From an uncultured bacterium (lineage in GTDB: Bacteria > Patescibacteriota > Minisyncoccia > Minisyncoccales > UBA5738): DNA of 58,678 nt. The DNA lies in contig CAINCQ010000039.1 of the NCBI GenBank assembly GCA_903847095.1, positions 1 through 58,678 on the forward strand. Direction: 5' to 3'. Numbering within the stretch: the stretch's first letter is position 1; each line of letters starts with the position of its first letter. Below the pieces are notes generated by a model that was not told where the DNA came from, did no database searches, and was given only the letters and a program-made list of their open reading frames with translations. Both the position numbers and the translations under genes were made by a program. This document shows positions 1 to 6,658 of the stretch, piece by piece.

Positions 1-1809
1 CAGCATATATCATTCAATAAAGGTGGTGATTTACAAGCCTCTGGGTCTAATGAGGTGATGAGGATTGTGTTAGATAGCGGCAACGTCGGCATCGGGACGA
101 CGAGCCCCTCTTACAAATTGGATGTGAACGGCACATTGAACGCCAGTGCCACATCTACCTTTGCGGGAAGGGTGGGTATTGGGACAACCGCGCCGAACTA
201 TGCTCTTGAGGTAAATGGGGACGCATCTCTTTCAAGTGCAATATTCAGCGTATCAAATTCGCATACCGGAAGTAATGTATCTACGTTTCAAATGTTGGCT
301 CCCAATCTTGAGACAAACAAAAATACCTTTTTTACAATAGGTAAAGCAGCGAGTGTTAACAATTCATTCACACCATTTTTTCAGTATGTTGGGGACGGGA
401 GTGCAAGTAATTACTTTGGTTTTACCCCATACGGAAGTGGATCATTGGGACTGTTTGTACAAGCGAGCGGCAACGTCGGCATCGGGACGCCCAGTGCCGA
501 TGTTGCGAACCGGCCTTCTGGCTTAGTCCCGTTGGTACCCTCTGTTTCAACCGATGAGGGGTCGCGGGAACCAAAGGTACAAAAGGGACATGCCGCAATA
601 GCGGGCAACGTCGGCAGCGGGACGTGTCCCTACTGCCAATCCAAAGATTTTGTAAAGCGGGGGACGCGCCAAAAGGCGAAGGAACGGGTACAGTTGTATC
701 TTTGCCGAAATTGCCGCCGGACCTTCACGCCGTTCGCGATAAAGGGGAAAAGCTATTCTTTGCCGGTGATCATTGACGCGATCAGCTATTACAATATCGG
801 GTTTTCTTTTGAGCAAACAGCCAAGGTTTTAAAAGAAAAACAAGCGGTGGATATCCAGCCGACCACCGTTGCCAACTGGTATGAAGAATACAGGGGAATG
901 TGCGCGTACGCCCGCATGCGGCCGTTCGCGGTTAAGGAATATTCTCCTTATAACGTTGTGGAAACCGCGACTTTGGCGCACCGCCAGCTGTACCGTTTTC
1001 GCTTTCATAAAGCCAAAGCGAAGCTGATTATCAAAGAATCCTACCGGCACTATCATTTAAAACCGATGGCGGAATTTTTGGCCTTGGTTCCCAGCGAATG
1101 CCCGCACCAGTATTTTCAGGAGGGCTTGCGCGCGTCCGAAGCACCGCTGTTTTTTTCAAAAAAAGAAATGATCGTAAGAAGCAAGCAAAACTACGCCACC
1201 AAAATGGCGGGATTCGCGGTTCCGGCGGCCAGCGACAACAAGCAGCGCCACGAAACCTTGCAGAAATTCATGCTGTTCAACGATTCGGTCACGGTAGCCA
1301 CCGAAGTCCCGGTTTATTTGACACGCGAGGATTTGGCGCACATGCGGACGCAATTGGGATTCGAGGTATATCGTCCCGCTGCCGATATTGAAGCCGCCCT
1401 TCTGGGGCAGTCCCAAAGTGACGCGGGACCAAAGAGACATGCTCCTAAAAGCTATCAACTTCTGCAGCGGGACGACGAGTTGCCAAAACTCATCACCGGT
1501 CACGTTGACTTTATCCAAATCCGCAACGGCTCCATTCATATTTTGGACTACAAGCCCAACGCCGCGAAAGAAAAGCCTATTGAACAGCTTACTTTATACG
1601 CGCTGGCGTTATCGCGCCTCACCGGCTTGCGGCTGTTTGAATTCAAATGCGCGTGGTTCGACGAAAAAAACTATTTTGAGTTTTTCCCCTTGCACGTCGT
1701 GTATAAACGCAAAAAAGGCAACCGGAAGAAGATACGCACGAAAGAGGGAATATACAGCATAAACGAGAGAATGGATAAGGTGGAGAATATGTGTACGATT
1801 GAAGTCTAA
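1..1809 (+). CDS. C-terminal part of a GNVGIGT-repeat fibre/adhesin-like protein fused in frame to an IS1/InsA-like zinc ribbon and a PD-(D/E)XK nuclease (5'-partial)
   Basis: Frame is open from base 1. Three G(N/R)VGIGT repeats lie in 79-489, then CPYC-x-CRNC zinc ribbon from 625, and a GHVDFIQIRNGSIHILDYK...QLTLYALAL PD-(D/E)XK-type motif near the C-terminus. Confidence 0.75.
   Translation, partial: QHISFNKGGDLQASGSNEVMRIVLDSGNVGIGTTSPSYKLDVNGTLNASATSTFAGRVGIGTTAPNYALEVNGDASLSSAIFSVSNSHTGSNVSTFQMLAPNLETNKNTFFTIGKAASVNNSFTPFFQYVGDGSASNYFGFTPYGSGSLGLFVQASGNVGIGTPSADVANRPSGLVPLVPSVSTDEGSREPKVQKGHAAIAGNVGSGTCPYCQSKDFVKRGTRQKAKERVQLYLCRNCRRTFTPFAIKGKSYSLPVIIDAISYYNIGFSFEQTAKVLKEKQAVDIQPTTVANWYEEYRGMCAYARMRPFAVKEYSPYNVVETATLAHRQLYRFRFHKAKAKLIIKESYRHYHLKPMAEFLALVPSECPHQYFQEGLRASEAPLFFSKKEMIVRSKQNYATKMAGFAVPAASDNKQRHETLQKFMLFNDSVTVATEVPVYLTREDLAHMRTQLGFEVYRPAADIEAALLGQSQSDAGPKRHAPKSYQLLQRDDELPKLITGHVDFIQIRNGSIHILDYKPNAAKEKPIEQLTLYALALSRLTGLRLFEFKCAWFDEKNYFEFFPLHVVYKRKKGNRKKIRTKEGIYSINERMDKVENMCTIEV
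76..99 (+). repeat. 24-bp site AGCGGCAACGTCGGCATCGGGACG (encodes SGNVGIGT), copy 1
   Basis: Identical to 466-489. Confidence 0.9.
466..489 (+). repeat. 24-bp site AGCGGCAACGTCGGCATCGGGACG, copy 2
   Basis: Identical to 76-99, 390 bp downstream. Confidence 0.9.
488..624. repeat. In-frame palindromic unit A bounded by inverted copies of the GNVGIGT-coding site
   Basis: Left end cgcccagtgccgatgttgc is a degenerate inverted site; right end 604-624 matches the site at 20/21. Internal gtccc...gggac stem. 469-593 aligns ungapped to 2477-2601 at 99/125. Confidence 0.8.
1371..1475. repeat. In-frame palindromic unit C (105 bp) inside the nuclease domain
   Basis: Perfect 12-bp terminal IR tcgtcccgctgc/gcagcgggacga, with the same internal blocks (ccttctgg, agtcccaa, gacatgctcctaa) as units A and B. 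Confidence 0.8.
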
Positions 1810-1826
1810 TAAATCAGAATAATTTC

Positions 1827-2280
1827 TAATTTTCAATTTCTAATTTCTATTAAATTACCAATGAGTGAATTTTCAAACAAAAATCAAGCGTATAATTTGG
1901 AGGAACGGACTGCGAAATTCAGCGAGAATATGTTAGCGCTTGTCCGCACGATAAAAAAAGATGATATCAATCGGAACATTATTGTCCAGCTCGTGAGAGC
2001 GGCGACTTCAATTGGCGCTAATTATTGCGAGGCGAACGCATCAAGCTCAAAAAGAGATTTTAGGAACAAAATATATATTAGAAAAAAAGAAGCGAATGAA
2101 ACGAAATATTGGTTGCGGATTTTGCTGGCGTATCATCCCGAGTTAAAAGAAACAATTTTGATTCTTTGGAAGGAAGCGCATGAATTTTATCTTATTTTCC
2201 AAAAAATTACCACTACGATCGACAAGGGGTCTAAAAATTGAATAAATAGAAATTTAATAGAAATTAAAAATTGAAAATTA
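1827..2280. repeat. 30-bp inverted repeats (1827-1856 / 2251-2280) enclosing the four-helix-bundle gene
   Basis: taattttcaatttctaatttctattaaatt vs aatttaatagaaattaaaaattgaaaatta, 29/30 complementary. Left arm is built from AATTTCT-type heptamers (1821-1848). Confidence 0.9.
1861..2241 (+). CDS. Four helix bundle protein (23S rRNA IVP / TIGR02436-like family)
   Basis: NLEERT..F, QLVRAATSIGANYCEA, SKRDF, KEANETKYWL family motifs; 126 aa. Confidence 0.9.
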   Translation: MSEFSNKNQAYNLEERTAKFSENMLALVRTIKKDDINRNIIVQLVRAATSIGANYCEANASSSKRDFRNKIYIRKKEANETKYWLRILLAYHPELKETILILWKEAHEFYLIFQKITTTIDKGSKN

Positions 2281-2284
2281 TTTT

Positions 2285-2932
2285 ATGAGCACAGCTTTTG
2301 TTCCCAAAAAGCCGGTTAAGAGTTTTCTCGATTTGGAAGTGTACCAGAAGGCATTGGAATGCGCGGTTTTCGTGGCGAAGTATATTGCCGTCCCGCCGCC
2401 GGCGTTGTCCGCCGTCAGGAGCGAGTCCCAAGGGGACGCGGTACCGTCGGGATCAACGGGACATGCCGCAACATCGGGCAATTTCGGCAGCGGGACGTCC
2501 AGTGCCGACGTTGAAAGCCGGCCTTCTGGCCTGGTCCCGCGGCCGCCTTTTGTCTCGAAGGATGATGGTTCGCCGGAGCCAAAGGTACAAACGGGACATG
2601 CTCCTAACGGCGGGCAACGTTGGCAGGGTGACGCCGGGATGGCCAAGGAATTGATTTTCCACCAAATGCTTCCCTGCGCCCTTGGCCTCCCGCACCTTAT
2701 CGCCGCGGCGCATTCGGTGCGTTTTGGCAGCCAAAAAGATTGTTTGATTTTGCTGGAGCGGGCGATGTTGCATTGCAACAAGATGGTTGTTTATCTGGAA
2801 GAAACGCGCGATATCGCCGATACCGGCGTTCCTTTTGAAAAATTCAGCGAACTTACCAAAAAATATTTATATCTGCGCCAAAAAATGCTCAATCTCCAGC
2901 GCTCTTGGAAAAAATACATGAGCGAAAAGTAA
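2285..2932 (+). CDS. Four helix bundle protein with an ~85-aa repeat-derived insertion
   Basis: SFLDLEVYQKA N-terminal motif and helical C-terminal half; Pro/Gly/Ser-rich insert at about 2387-2640 corresponds to two palindromic units. Confidence 0.75.
   Translation: MSTAFVPKKPVKSFLDLEVYQKALECAVFVAKYIAVPPPALSAVRSESQGDAVPSGSTGHAATSGNFGSGTSSADVESRPSGLVPRPPFVSKDDGSPEPKVQTGHAPNGGQRWQGDAGMAKELIFHQMLPCALGLPHLIAAAHSVRFGSQKDCLILLERAMLHCNKMVVYLEETRDIADTGVPFEKFSELTKKYLYLRQKMLNLQRSWKKYMSEK
2389..2633. repeat. Two tandem in-frame palindromic units B1 (2389-2497) and B2 (2496-2633)
   Basis: 2389-2412 is an inverted site (21/24 to gcgggcaacgtcggcagcgggacg); direct sites end at 2497 and 2633; B2 is homologous to unit A. 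Confidence 0.8.
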
Positions 2933-2933
2933 T

Positions 2934-4613
2934 ATGCCGTATATTACCGCTTCACGGCTTTATGATTTTCTCCAATGCCCTCATCGGGTTTGGAGGGACA
3001 TTTACGGGCCGCTTGAGGAGAAATCCGAAGAAACCAATCCATTCGTCCGGCTTTTGTGGGATCGGGGCGTAAACCACGAAGACGCTATTCTGGCGAAACT
3101 GGGAGATTTCTTGAATTTGGAAGAAGGGTCGATCGACGAACGGTTCGGAGAAACAATGGAAGCGATGAAAAGCAAAGAACCTTTGATTTATCAAGGGGTT
3201 TTGAAATACGATAATTTGCTGGGAATACCCGATATTCTAAAAAGATCGCCCGATGGCGTTTATATACCCATTGATATCAAATCCGGCGCCGGGTTTGACG
3301 GTATCGACGAAAAGGAAGGCGGCGCGGGGAAACCGAAAAAACATTACGCGGTTCAGCTTTGTTTGTATGGCGATATTTTGAAAAAGCTTGGTTTTGCCGA
3401 TTCCATTCGCGGGGGAATAATAGATATTCGCGGCAGTGAAATCGAGTACGACCTATTGTCGCCGATGGGCGGACGAACTACGGAAACCTGGCTTGATTAT
3501 TATGAAAAGACAAAAGAACAAGTTGAATCTTTGGTAAACGATCGCGAAAAAACGTTGCCCGCCGTTTGCGGCGTTTGCAAATTATGTCCCTGGCACGATT
3601 CTTGCGAAAAGTGGTGTAAAGAATCAAAAGACCTAACCACTGTTTTTTGTCTTGGGAGAAGCTTTCGCGATAAAATAAATCAGGATTTGCTTATTGGCGG
3701 CATCGATGATTTTTTGAACATTGATGTTGGCGAAACAATGAAGCTAAAGGAAGCAACGAAATTATCAGGCGACCCTTTTTTTCTTCGCGGAATCGGCGAA
3801 AGCAGTCTTCAAAAATCGATCAATCGGGCGAAAATATTATATCAAACGAAAAAACCGGTAATTTACCGGCCAATTTATTTTCCGAAAACCCGATACGAAC
3901 TGTTTTTTGACATCGAAGATGACCCGACGCGGGAATTCGTTTATTTGCACGGGGTTTACGAAAGAAACGGCGCCAAAGAAAGATTCCGGGATTTTTGCGC
4001 GAAAGAATTTTCCGCAGCGGCGGAAAAAAACGCGTGGCGCGATTTTTGGGAATATGTTAAATCGTTGCCCCAAAATGATTTTTCGGTTTACTATTATTCC
4101 GCCCACGAAGAAACAACTTACAAAAGATTGCAAAAGCGCTATTCCGACGTAATCACAGCCGAGGAACTGGAAAATTTTTTTAACAATCCAAACGTAATCG
4201 ATCTTTACGGAATTATCCAAAAACAGACCGATTGGCCGTCCGGAAGTTATTCTTTGAAGGCATTGGCGTCATATTCGGGTTTTCATTGGAGAGACGAAAC
4301 GCCGTCGGGATCTTTGTCGATCCAATGGTTCAATGATTATTTGGAAACAAAGAATGAATCAACATTAAAGAGGATTTTGGAATACAACGAAGATGATTGC
4401 AAGGCGACAATGGCGCTAAAGGACAAGCTAGAAAAAATGAGTGGTAAGATGTTCCCAAAGTCATCCCTTTGGCGAGGATGTTATCCGGCGACTCGCAGTG
4501 ACCGCGGGAAACCAAGCTCCGCAGTGGCAAGACCACTGCTAAGCCAGCAGTGGTCTTGCCACTGCTGGCTTTTTTTGGTTCTTATGCTATTATTTTTTCA
4601 AAATTATAATTAG
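2934..4613 (+). CDS. TM0106-family RecB-like nuclease (PD-(D/E)XK plus RNase H-like 3'-5' exonuclease domain)
   Basis: ITASRLYDFLQCPH, GIPDIL, PIDIKS, QLCLY, CxxCPW, FFDIE, SYSLK and YNEDDC motifs; last ~50 codons run across the REP cluster. Confidence 0.85.
   Translation: MPYITASRLYDFLQCPHRVWRDIYGPLEEKSEETNPFVRLLWDRGVNHEDAILAKLGDFLNLEEGSIDERFGETMEAMKSKEPLIYQGVLKYDNLLGIPDILKRSPDGVYIPIDIKSGAGFDGIDEKEGGAGKPKKHYAVQLCLYGDILKKLGFADSIRGGIIDIRGSEIEYDLLSPMGGRTTETWLDYYEKTKEQVESLVNDREKTLPAVCGVCKLCPWHDSCEKWCKESKDLTTVFCLGRSFRDKINQDLLIGGIDDFLNIDVGETMKLKEATKLSGDPFFLRGIGESSLQKSINRAKILYQTKKPVIYRPIYFPKTRYELFFDIEDDPTREFVYLHGVYERNGAKERFRDFCAKEFSAAAEKNAWRDFWEYVKSLPQNDFSVYYYSAHEETTYKRLQKRYSDVITAEELENFFNNPNVIDLYGIIQKQTDWPSGSYSLKALASYSGFHWRDETPSGSLSIQWFNDYLETKNESTLKRILEYNEDDCKATMALKDKLEKMSGKMFPKSSLWRGCYPATRSDRGKPSSAVARPLLSQQWSCHCWLFLVLMLLFFQNYN
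4521..4568. repeat. REP doublet upstream of RAYT; second REP plus T-tract forms an intrinsic terminator
   Basis: gcagtggcaagaccactgc followed by inverted gcagtggtcttgccactgc; 47/48 identical to 5394-5441; followed by ttttttt. Confidence 0.9.
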
Positions 4614-4631
4614 CAGTGGCCTTGCCACTGT
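4613..4631. repeat. Single REP between a TATAAT (4605-4610) and the RAYT start codon
   Basis: gcagtggccttgccactgt, hairpin cagtggc-ctt-gccactg. Confidence 0.85.
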
Positions 4632-4643
4632 TTGACTATTCTT

Positions 4644-5381
4644 ATGTCTCAAAGAAAAGAAGAATTTATAATTGGGGAAATCTATCATATAACCGTTCGC
4701 GGGGTCGATGGGCGGCCGATTTTCATGGACGGAGAGGATGATTGGCGAATGGTTTTTTCGCTCTATGAATTTAACACAACGGAATTGGTAATAATTCGCA
4801 AACAAAGAGAAAAGAGGTTGAAATACAAAGAAATGATCCGCAGTGGTCTTGCCACTGCGGAGCTTGAAAGGCGGATGAAGGAAGACAATAGGGATAAGCT
4901 GGTGGAAATTTTGGCGTTTGTTTTTATGCCCAATCATGTCCATCTGTTGTTGCGGCAAATAAAGCCAGGAGGAATCAGCCTTTTTATGCAAAAATTAGGC
5001 TCGGGTTATCCGCGGTATTTTAACAGCCGGTATGAGCGAAAAGGACATTTGTTCCAAGATAAATTCGCCTCCAGCCATATTTCCGGAAATGATTATTTAA
5101 AGACGGTATTTGTGTATATTCACACCAATCCCATCTCGCTTGTTGAACCGCGATGGAAAGAAAAAGGCGTAGAAAATCCGGAAAATGCCATCACGTTTCT
5201 TGAGGGATATCGGTGGTCTAGTTATCTTGATTATCTGGGAAAAAATAATTTTCCCGCGCTGACAGAACGAAGTTTTTTAAACGGAGTATTTAGAGATCAA
5301 AAAACAATAAAAGAATTCGTTGATTCATGGATCAGATGTAAGTCTATAACTTGCATAAATAACAGATTCAAACAGGGATAA
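4644..5381 (+). mobile_element. REP-associated tyrosine transposase (RAYT, Y1_Tnp / IS200-IS605 TnpA superfamily)
   Basis: YHITVRG, MPNHVHLL (HUH), HLFQDKF, YIHTNP and YRWSSY motifs; flanked by REP doublets. Confidence 0.9.
4840..4858. repeat. REP embedded in frame in the RAYT CDS
   Basis: gcagtggtcttgccactgc is identical to 4547-4565 and lies within the codons for RSGLATA. Confidence 0.9.
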
Positions 5382-5393
5382 GTTGTTAATCCA

Positions 5394-5441
5394 GCAGTGG
5401 CAAGACCACTGCTAAGCCAGCAGTAGTCTTGCCACTGCTGG
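5394..5441. repeat. REP doublet downstream of RAYT
   Basis: Direct repeat of 4521-4568 with 1 mismatch. Confidence 0.9.
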
Positions 5442-5551
5442 AGTGGGGCTAAGCGCGCGGTTTTGGCTATTGAAAAAGGGGCGGGGGGCAGCTATATTAT
5501 TCATATGGCGTGTTGTGTGTTTTATTCCGGCCTCTGTCCGGGTGGTTTGGT

Positions 5552-6658
5552 ATGAATTTTATTTTAAATCATTTTAAAAAACTGGATTGGGTTTTGATTT
5601 TTTCGGCTCTTGGTTTGGTTTTGATGGGATTTTTGTCGGTTTACAGCAGTTCCCTTCATTCCGGGAATTTCACCAATTTGGAAAAGAACATCGCCTTTTT
5701 CGCGGTTGGTTTTTTTCTGATGTTTCTTTTCAGCTTTTTCGACTGGCGGATATTCCGGGAGAATCCTTACTTGATTTTGATCCTCTATTTTTTTTCCATA
5801 GCGTTGTTGTTTGGCTTGTATTTTTTCGCGCCCGCGACCCGCGGCGTCAGGACCTGGTATAAACTTGGTCCGTTTTCCATCGATCCGATCGAAATAACGA
5901 AAATTTCACTCCTTATTCTGCTGGCAAAGTATTTTTCGTCCCGCCATGTCGAAATGTACCGGATCAAACATGTTTTTCTTTCAGGGGTATACGTTCTCAT
6001 TCCGGTTGCTTTGATCTTTTTCCAGCCCAATCTTGGTTCCTGTCTGGTGATCCTTTCTCTCTGGCTCGGGATATTGGTGATCTCGGGTATTAAATTGCGG
6101 CATTTTTTGTTTTTGATGCTGGCTTTTATGATGGTTTTCGCTTCCGGATGGATTTTCTTTTTGAAGGATTACCAGAAAGCCCGGATAATGAGCTTTTTTA
6201 TTCCCTATGACCCTTTGGGCATTTCCTGGAGCCAGAACCAGTCCAAGATCGCGGCTGGCATCGGCGGACTTTTCGGCAAGGGGATAGGCAACGGTTCCCA
6301 GACCCAGTACGGTTTTTTATCCGAACCTCAGACCGATTTTATTTTCGCGGCGGTCGCCGAGGAAATGGGGATCGCCGGCATAGCGGTATTGTTGATGCTT
6401 TTTTTGCTGGTAATTTGGAGGATAACCAAGATAGCCCAAGGCGCTCACGATAATTTTTCCAAACTATTCGTTCTTGGATTCGCTGTTTTGCTGGTTGCCC
6501 AGATAATAATCCATATCGGGATGAATATCGGGTTTTTACCGATCATCGGGCTGCCTCTGCCTTTCTTGAGCTATGGCGGATCGAACATGATAGCGACTTT
6601 CATGATCATCGGGATCCTGCAAAGCATCATGGTCAATCCCCATTCCGAATTGTTTTAA
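5552..6658 (+). CDS. rodA: Rod shape-determining protein RodA (SEDS family)
   Basis: Multi-TM protein with YQKARI, QSKIAAGIGGLFGKG, EPQTDFIF and LPFLSYGGS motifs; candidate promoter ttgaaa-17-tatatt at 5470-5498. Confidence 0.85.
   Translation: MNFILNHFKKLDWVLIFSALGLVLMGFLSVYSSSLHSGNFTNLEKNIAFFAVGFFLMFLFSFFDWRIFRENPYLILILYFFSIALLFGLYFFAPATRGVRTWYKLGPFSIDPIEITKISLLILLAKYFSSRHVEMYRIKHVFLSGVYVLIPVALIFFQPNLGSCLVILSLWLGILVISGIKLRHFLFLMLAFMMVFASGWIFFLKDYQKARIMSFFIPYDPLGISWSQNQSKIAAGIGGLFGKGIGNGSQTQYGFLSEPQTDFIFAAVAEEMGIAGIAVLLMLFLLVIWRITKIAQGAHDNFSKLFVLGFAVLLVAQIIIHIGMNIGFLPIIGLPLPFLSYGGSNMIATFMIIGILQSIMVNPHSELF

Follow-up and report, generated by a model that had tools for sequence, protein, structure and literature searches.

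A 21-nt coding word conserved as DNA and linked to a nuclease gene pair and palindromic elements in Patescibacteria

Short DNA sites inside surface-protein or adhesin genes serve segment exchange in shufflons and invertible tail-fibre segments (sfx/Rci, gix/Gin), in the motif-mediated exchange of T-even tail fibres and in vlsE cassettes. Repetitive extragenic palindromes (REPs) occur as tens to hundreds of mostly extragenic palindromic copies, with a cognate REP-associated tyrosine transposase (RAYT) gene that is flanked by the same REP. Rickettsia palindromic elements (RPE), which Ogata and colleagues are said to have described in 2000 and 2002, are reportedly ~100-150 nt long, inserted in frame in protein genes and translated as extra loops. 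Here we analysed contig CAINCQ010000039.1 of an uncultured patescibacterium of the UBA5738 lineage (assembly GCA_903847095.1; the whole stretch of 58,678 nt, hereafter the window), in which a 21-nt word, GGCAACGTCGGCATCGGGACG, encodes GNVGIGT in a fibre-like gene and recurs with mismatches as the inverted ends of palindromic elements in and beside the genes of a nuclease and its four-helix-bundle partner. Across bacteria of the candidate phyla radiation (CPR), this word is conserved as DNA beyond the constraint of the peptide, is linked to the nuclease pair and is a recombination breakpoint for fibre modules.

The shufflon and invertible systems share with these loci short DNA sites inside coding sequence, exchanged segments and a varied protein; the words here are direct rather than inverted, the site is identical phylum-wide and the enzyme encoded beside it is a nuclease. 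The loci examined showed no tyrosine or serine recombinase, and shufflon-type inversion was rejected on the strand distribution of exact words (175 versus 0) and on the absence of any recombinase family among 72 downstream proteins. The elements are, like RPE, in-frame palindromes translated as extra loops; they differ in lineage and sequence, in ends that copy the coding word of another gene family and in copies clustered in one nuclease cassette, whereas RPE are dispersed. By analogy they appear to work most like RPE-type palindromes, but as satellites of a single nuclease cassette.

With REPINs (REP doublets forming hairpins) the elements share inverted doublets that fold into long hairpins and ends that start with CGTC (cf. 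the CGTC/GTAG-tagged REPs outlined in Di Nocera et al. 2013, PMC3733652). The initial annotation had proposed REPIN-like behaviour, which was not borne out: genome G000, searched with nhmmer over 1.35 Mb at E < 1e-3, holds about 5 copies (4 full and 1 partial, at most 79% alike), the full ones all intragenic, and the RAYT-like gene of the window is flanked by a different hairpin, GCAGTGGCAAGACCACTGC, and not by the word; a REPIN or REP-RAYT system was rejected on these grounds. As in the fractured genes outlined in 2009 (PMC2677866), related loci hold the nuclease pair between the intein N-half and C-half of fibre open reading frames (ORFs). The host gene here is a repeat-built surface fibre rather than a DNA-metabolism enzyme, the enzyme is a Zn-ribbon/helix-turn-helix (HTH) plus RecB-type nuclease with a four-helix-bundle partner rather than a Vsr-like one, the window itself is without an intein, and the abstract of that report names neither a 21-nt word nor word-ended palindromes. 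Ssn is presented by Chenal et al. 2025 (PMC11893778) as a GIY-YIG enzyme that cuts single-stranded DNA, with NTS repeats surrounding genes; as outlined there, the nuclease gene is tied genetically to a specific short repeat, as here, and the NTS repeats shape recombination and transformation. The enzyme here is a predicted PD-(D/E)XK nuclease and the repeat is a coding word inside genes. A literature search, with supplements outside its scope, returned no description of the 21-nt word or of its arrangement with nuclease and palindromes.

The word: conservation, linkage and breakpoints

Comparisons were made across 80 loci from many CPR lineages (fetched by nuclease peptide patterns alone), an evenly sampled phylum survey of 401 genomes, and an unbiased viral control made up of 185 in-frame GNVGIGT sites, at 103 loci, that a degenerate pattern recovered from viral contigs. 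In the nuclease loci the exact 21-mer encodes 172 of 222 GNVGIGT sites and is the majority form in 49 of 55 loci, against a background GC content at third codon positions (GC3) of 0.26-0.71 in the same ORFs. Third codon positions carry 1.2-1.6 bits of information within the word versus 0.67 at the next Thr and 0.04-0.2 bits at the comparably conserved Pro+9, Leu+13, Val+15 and Gly+17; silent sites of neighbouring residues conserved as strongly as those of the word vary freely. All seven third positions of the word are G or C, in genes with GC3 mostly 0.3-0.5, and the choice of codon is specific to the letter (GGC at codons 1 and 4, GGG at codon 6, ACG and not ACC). In the viral control the exact word was found at 0 of 185 sites, where codons vary freely. 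GNVGIGT-coding sites were present in 130 of the surveyed genomes, with 62 of 556 sites exact. The word is conserved as DNA, beyond what the peptide constrains. Seven consecutive codons frozen across genomes of very different base composition are rare in protein-coding DNA. Separately, a 7022-nt contig filed as viral (L139) carries 19 GNVGIGT sites, 16 of them exact, against a background GC3 of 0.37, and several of its word-bounded modules are duplicated.

Linkage to the nuclease pair was seen both locally and across the phylum. Word-like sites occur in 59 of the 80 nuclease loci, 227 on the nuclease strand versus 5 on the opposite one, and exact words number 175 versus 0; the arrays lie just upstream of the pair and are co-directional with it. 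Among the 401 surveyed genomes the word was found in 23, the nuclease in 14 and both in 9, versus 0.8 expected (nominal Fisher p 2e-9), and of the 8 other genomes that carry both, 7 have their words on the contig and strand of the nuclease, 1-9 kb upstream. Exactness follows the same geography: 31 of 108 GNVGIGT sites are exact in nuclease-bearing genomes versus 31 of 448 elsewhere (about four times the share). By successive kilobase upstream of the nuclease the exact share runs 8/8, 45/48, 66/79, 35/45 and 6/13, and overall it is 160/193 upstream versus 12/29 downstream. The initial annotation had held the word to be conserved as DNA and had suggested a tie to the nuclease and the four-helix-bundle protein, and had named free synonymous variation and lack of nuclease linkage among the outcomes that would speak against it; the reverse was found in both respects.

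Two word-bearing loci with no nuclease match, L338 (G098:C1, 4038-12402) and L339 (G043:C1, 1757-9776), show a fibre gene of ~2500 aa followed directly by a protein of ~200 aa ending in GGFTERLY. We take this ending to be a mark of the four-helix-bundle protein, and on that assumption a four-helix-bundle neighbour may accompany word-bearing fibre genes even where the nuclease is lacking.

The initial annotation had further proposed that the word is a recombination site, and comparison of modules upheld this. Genomes G006 and G005, two species of one genus, have in common a 306-nt module that is 100% identical and in register; identity starts inside one word and stops just past the next, and in the flanks it is 22-39%. 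The same pattern of a word-bounded module recurs between viral contigs L205 and L219. In cross-source matches within word arrays, 33 of 65 internal ends lie at most 12 nt from a word, versus 0.107 under the null, and 8 modules have words at both ends. Match ends that start at a word and fade after 70-90 nt were treated as regions of conserved motif, the clean evidence being the near-identical modules. Because these modules begin and end inside words, the word is a recombination breakpoint for fibre modules.

Rearrangement at the word, which the initial annotation had suggested looking for by read mapping, was not recovered: Logan contigs of 4 runs gave no excision or inversion and no joint skipping A, C, B1 or B2 (the four elements of the window, below), in a type of data that cannot reveal rare variants. 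The 21 sequencing runs listed included no RNA run with this sequence. Contig joints between the two exact words of the window (101/102 to 465/466) were present, with sides of 20-26 nt, and probably derive from other word-bearing genes. Several contigs fetched among the 80 loci start exactly at a word, which suggests that the word breaks assemblies.

Palindromic elements with word-like ends

A scan of the window allowing up to 3 mismatches returned 6 word sites, all inside 76-2633, with 0 expected from 100 shuffles. Besides the exact + strand copies at 79 and 469, inexact copies start at 604 (1 mismatch), 2477 (2) and 2613 (3) on the + strand and at 2389 (3) on the - strand. The ends of unit C, at about 5 mismatches, fall below the threshold of the scan and were recovered as a 21-nt inverted pair, 86% complementary. 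Scan and alignment together confirmed the initial description of word positions and of inverted pairs bounding four units, A, C, B1 and B2 (Table 1). The units, 105-138 nt long, form a single family by alignment, A and B2 being its long form (78% alike) and C and B1 its short form; the interior block gtccc...gacatgc is present in all four, and ccttctgg in A, C and B2, as first described. None of them breaks a reading frame (1..1809 and 2285..2932 are open throughout), and the word-like ends are read in three different frames, as GNVGSGT (604-624), QLLQRDD (1456-1476) and GQRWQGDA (2612-2635), which also agrees with the initial account. For every element 3 or 4 of the 6 frames lack stops, and an open frame by itself is therefore weak evidence. 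Element GC is 0.57-0.70, versus 0.45-0.50 in the flanks, and fold z-scores are -3.0 for A, -5.5 for C, -3.4 for B1, -5.0 for B1+B2 and -0.5 for B2 alone.

Homologues confirmed where the units were said to lie: A at the fibre/nuclease junction, C in a nuclease loop and B1+B2 in the four-helix-bundle partner. The loop after LGFE[VI]Y that holds C carries an insert in some nuclease homologues and none in others, and B1+B2 occupy a gap of ~88 residues relative to a 132-aa four-helix-bundle homologue. Element A is at the identical place in an 88%-identical homologue, P0001 (known here as protein alone), in which a further insert forms a tandem with C. Instead of the fibre fragment that precedes A in the window, P0001 shows a leader of its own and a peptide readable as an element end, a difference that suggests past recombination between a fibre word and an element end. 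At the DNA level, the same head-to-head junction with a shared CG is seen where A adjoins the fibre word and where B2 adjoins the right end of B1.

Copies from distant lineages follow the plan CGTCCCnGTGCCGATnTTG ... GTCCCAAGGGGAC ... GGGCAATTTCGGCAGCGGGACG. The right end of the family consensus has 18 of the 21 word letters, and the terminal inverted repeats comprise 14 conserved end pairs over 15 copies from several lineages. The elements are concentrated in nuclease loci: with a model built partly from those loci's own copies, 541 kb of nuclease loci yielded 86 hits, 29 of them nearly full-length, spread over 44 of the 80 loci; 994 kb of viral loci with the word yielded 7, all partial, and 1048 kb of viral control loci none. 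A motif-based placement, which left 23 of 86 unplaced, puts copies repeatedly inside or close to the nuclease gene and in the partner region, up to 900 nt downstream of it. Of the 5 hits in G000, the 4 full copies all lie in genes of the cassette and the fifth, a partial copy, does not, and a full intergenic copy is present in G001, a genome in which no nuclease was found. By the features tested the elements are not classical miniature inverted-repeat transposable elements: terminal inverted repeats are present, and target-site duplications were not found. No gene was found between a clean pair of element ends, and the nearby nuclease has an IS1-type Zn/HTH head and no DDE domain.

Right-half partial copies (G000 C24:196196-196326 and C22:13535-13635; G001 C28:17024-17067) end at promoter-like TTGACA/TATAAT boxes upstream of genes, and the C24 copy is retained at the orthologous place in a same-genus genome. 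A search of Rfam with window positions 1-6000 (E <= 1) returned nothing on the elements and chance-level miRNA-type matches on the RAYT hairpins alone. An assembly chimera at 469-507 was considered and rejected, as a contig from run X5, an independent sample, bridges the region (94-799) with no differences. Likewise, the 'RDM' ahead of the Zn ribbon in homologues was considered as a GGGACATGC box and rejected, being mostly the conserved protein leader ITDS..EISETRD.

Table 1. Positions of the word, the palindromic elements and the associated genes in the window (nt).
Feature	Position	Strand	Remarks
GNVGIGT-repeat fibre/adhesin gene, 3' fragment	1..489	+	Open from base 1, cut by contig start; ends in the word
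Exact word	79..99	+	In frame as GNVGIGT
Exact word	469..489	+	In frame; final CG common to left end of element A, giving head-to-head palindrome 470-507
Element A, long form	488..624	+	Joins fibre fragment in frame to Zn ribbon; right end 604-624 is the word with T14G
Nuclease	625..1809	+	Zn ribbon, IS1/IS6-like HTH region, RecB/Cas4-type PD-(D/E)XK core
Element C, short form	1371..1475	+	In frame, in variable nuclease loop between LGFEVY and ELPKLITGH
Extra four-helix-bundle gene (1861-2241) with flanks	1827..2280	+	PF05635 1.7e-14; TIGR02436 5e-18
Partner gene, divergent Avd-like four-helix bundle	2285..2932	+	Homologous to usual first ORF after nuclease; carries B1+B2
Element B1, short form	2389..2497	+	In partner-protein loop
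Element B2, long form	2496..2633	+	In tandem with B1; junction GGGA-CG-TCCAG, form as in word/A junction

Nuclease, partner and neighbouring genes

ORF 1-1809 is an in-frame fusion of a fibre fragment ending in the word, element A and the nuclease. The nuclease has a Zn ribbon formed by C209, C212, C235 and C238 (nt 625-714) and core residues D503 (1507-1509), D516-Y-K518 (1546-1554) and Q529xxxY533 (1585-1599); across 17 sequences D503, K518, Q529 and Y533 are invariant and D516 nearly so. It matched PF12705 (E 6.9e-5, 23.3 bits against a cut-off of 22) and PF03811, and its N-terminus matched the IS1/IS1595 Zn domain NF050000 of NCBIfam (2.1e-8). IS1-type Zn domains bind the inverted ends of IS1. 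Fold matches to AddA/RecB/Cas4 were weak (best E 2.3e-3), Foldseek against the PDB returned no match at E <= 0.001, and a sequence search of solved structures gave nothing below E 0.18. Of 2816 nuclease relatives, the best 120 come from sources named as Patescibacteria or as candidate phyla, e.g. Ca. Nealsonbacteria.

The first ORF after the nuclease was taken in 70 loci, and most of these proteins are 40-57% identical to that of window 2285-2932. Among 72 aligned downstream proteins 23 matched PF05635; the window's own protein did not, probably owing to its insert. Since a relative of the partner was found in 75 of 80 nuclease loci, nuclease and four-helix-bundle protein form a conserved pair. 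A predicted complex of the two scored 0.00, a value that speaks neither for nor against their binding. Because the first ORF after the nuclease elsewhere is the homologue of 2285-2932, the gene at 1861-2241 looks like a later insertion between the nuclease and its usual partner; an AT-rich inverted repeat of 52 nt, with arms 83% complementary, encloses it, so that it resembles a one-gene cassette, and contig C38 holds one similar arm.

In the related loci, ORFs of >1000 aa with 7-12 GNVGIGT sites stand upstream of the nuclease, in the position of window 1..489; no overlapping contig end that would continue the window's contig in the 5' direction was found in G000. In several loci the pair has a very large GNVGIGT-repeat ORF on either side, and in some the two are halves of one gene, with an intein N-part ending the upstream ORF and a C-part starting the downstream one. 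PF14890 matched the N-part in L031 and L034 and the C-part in L034 and L095, and 15 loci contain an intein N-block motif, at 16 places in all. In 8 of 15 loci the sequence across the extein/intein junction is GNVGIGT-TSPLAKLHVEGS|C, which places the intein 36 nt (12 codons) after the word. No intein half was found in the window: ORF 1-1809 matched PDDEXK_1 and Zn-ribbon families alone, and no fibre C-half lies downstream.

Downstream of the cassette, 2934-4613 holds a RecB-like nuclease of the TM0106 family (TIGR03491, 1.2e-66) that has an RNase H-like domain; this RecB-like gene (2934-4520) was looked for in G001 and G005 and not found. It is followed by the RAYT-like Y1 transposase gene at 4632-5381 (PF01797, NF047646), whose own hairpins, GCAGTGGCAAGACCACTGC, are at 4521-4571, 4610-4630 and 5388-5442. 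One copy of GCAGTGGCAAGACCACTGC is in frame inside the RAYT-like gene (4840-4858), another is the translated tail of the upstream RecB-like gene, and 6 of the 8 genome copies fall within window 4513-5445. In L034, L038 and L049 the nuclease loop between LGF and LPKLITGH carries other low-complexity inserts, e.g. the peptide IENSSIDNSLKIENCELKIN. Such inserts look like translated AT-rich palindromic repeats, and the occurrence of unrelated inserts at one place makes the loop look like a general landing site for several repeat families.

Alternative explanations and implications

On the explanation we favour, the word (24 nt with the next ACG codon included) would be a DNA-level recombination site at every CPR fibre-module boundary, and modules would be exchanged as cassettes, within and between genomes, via crossovers inside it. 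Most likely, the nuclease pair recognises the word, or ends that resemble it, and breaks the DNA at these places; such breaks would drive the pair's own homing, with module exchange as a by-product or a domesticated function that may benefit the host. The palindromes of 95-140 nt would be non-autonomous satellites of the cassette, mobilised through inverted ends that mimic the word, and would insert directly next to word-like sequences and survive, in frame, where loops of the cassette's two genes tolerate them. Of the steps beyond the observations, the best supported is reading or cutting of the word by the nuclease, together with mobilisation of the word-ended palindromes, and we consider it an even call. 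The wider proposition, a universal 21-nt connector of CPR and their mobile DNA that is read and cut by a dedicated pair, with fibre modules shuffled on purpose and palindromes as the system's small mobile substrates, is advanced tentatively and could well be wrong.

Several results weigh against this explanation. The counts pool kin and multiple sites per gene and are non-independent, so all p-values are nominal. No nuclease match was obtained in 14 of the 23 word-bearing genomes, among them G098, whose words are on an 819-kb contig, nor in any of 5 same-family genomes in which it was looked for (G001, G002, G005, G006 and G013; G005 is a single contig), and neither nuclease nor partner was found in the stored flanks of 120 viral contigs with the exact word. 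The cleanest word-bounded module is common to G005 and G006, so at present, at least, the nuclease is not required in cis. Upstream of ftsW, same-genus G001 has nothing that corresponds to window 1-5500, for which reason the nuclease cassette looks acquired. On the side of the elements, no direct target-site duplication flanks any of 15 copies, those in G000 are old, being 79% alike at most, and the end stems keep their sequence and show hardly any compensatory change; this last pattern fits protein recognition better than selection on structure alone. A selfish endonuclease, moreover, leaves the host's retention of its target unexplained, and co-conversion fails as an explanation because the 36 nt that separate the word from the intein site are free to vary. 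Neither homing nor co-conversion accounts for a frozen word beside those free-varying 36 nt.

The position of the pair between split-intein halves in related loci, which the initial annotation had missed, makes selfish homing a serious rival. The arrangement would then be a purely selfish homing cassette of the split-intein fractured-gene type, with the word as its landing anchor, being the sole invariant stretch of the fibre; the word would be kept independently as a minimal identity patch for RecA-type recombination and refreshed by exchange, and the palindromes would be independent satellites. Apart from the flanking intein halves, the patchy occurrence of a nuclease that is found in 14 of 401 genomes and is nevertheless 50-88% identical across lineages (among the best 120 of the 2816 relatives) favours such a cassette, as do the negative searches for it in the 5 close relatives, the lack of a counterpart at ftsW in G001, and words and module exchange in genomes where no nuclease was found. 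It does not, however, lead one to expect that exactness of the word peaks beside the nuclease and drops with distance, that exact words are about four times commoner in nuclease-bearing genomes, or that word-ended elements concentrate in nuclease loci, which would be surprising in independent satellites. On balance we consider a wholly selfish cassette less likely than the favoured explanation, and its main rival.

It is improbable that the palindromic units are repair scars, i.e. foldback or inverted duplications formed at broken word sites, later diverged and not mobile. The lack of target-site duplications, the head-to-head junctions that are perfect palindromes centred on a common CG, and the low copy number with copies near the nuclease alone are what scars would leave; against them, the interior blocks GTCCCAAGGGGAC and GGGACATGC and the architecture are common to distant lineages and different sites, which argues for descent from a common element rather than independent scars, and the full intergenic copy in G001 lies in a genome where the nuclease was not found. 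Least probable of all is a role in RNA or translation, in which the word would be a programmed pause or an mRNA binding site at the module boundary and breakpoints would gather at the sole identical stretch: G/C-ending and hence rare codons at a domain boundary agree with it, but the letter-specific codon choice goes beyond G/C endings, viral GNVGIGT fibres are without such codon choice, and the linkage to the nuclease with its gradient and the out-of-frame word-like inverted ends are left unexplained.

The favoured explanation, recombination at a word that a nuclease pair reads or cuts, ties together by one word the in-frame CPR palindromes, the nuclease/four-helix-bundle pair and the split inteins of fibre genes, and makes the nuclease a candidate sequence-specific enzyme with a predicted target of 21-24 nt. 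For CPR bacteria, which live attached to host cells, the giant fibre proteins are likely contact organs. If the explanation is true, a phylum-wide DNA connector with visible cassette exchange would be a concrete, testable way to vary these fibre proteins, and deliberate shuffling, if that too is true, would be the cassette-exchange counterpart of diversity-generating retroelements.

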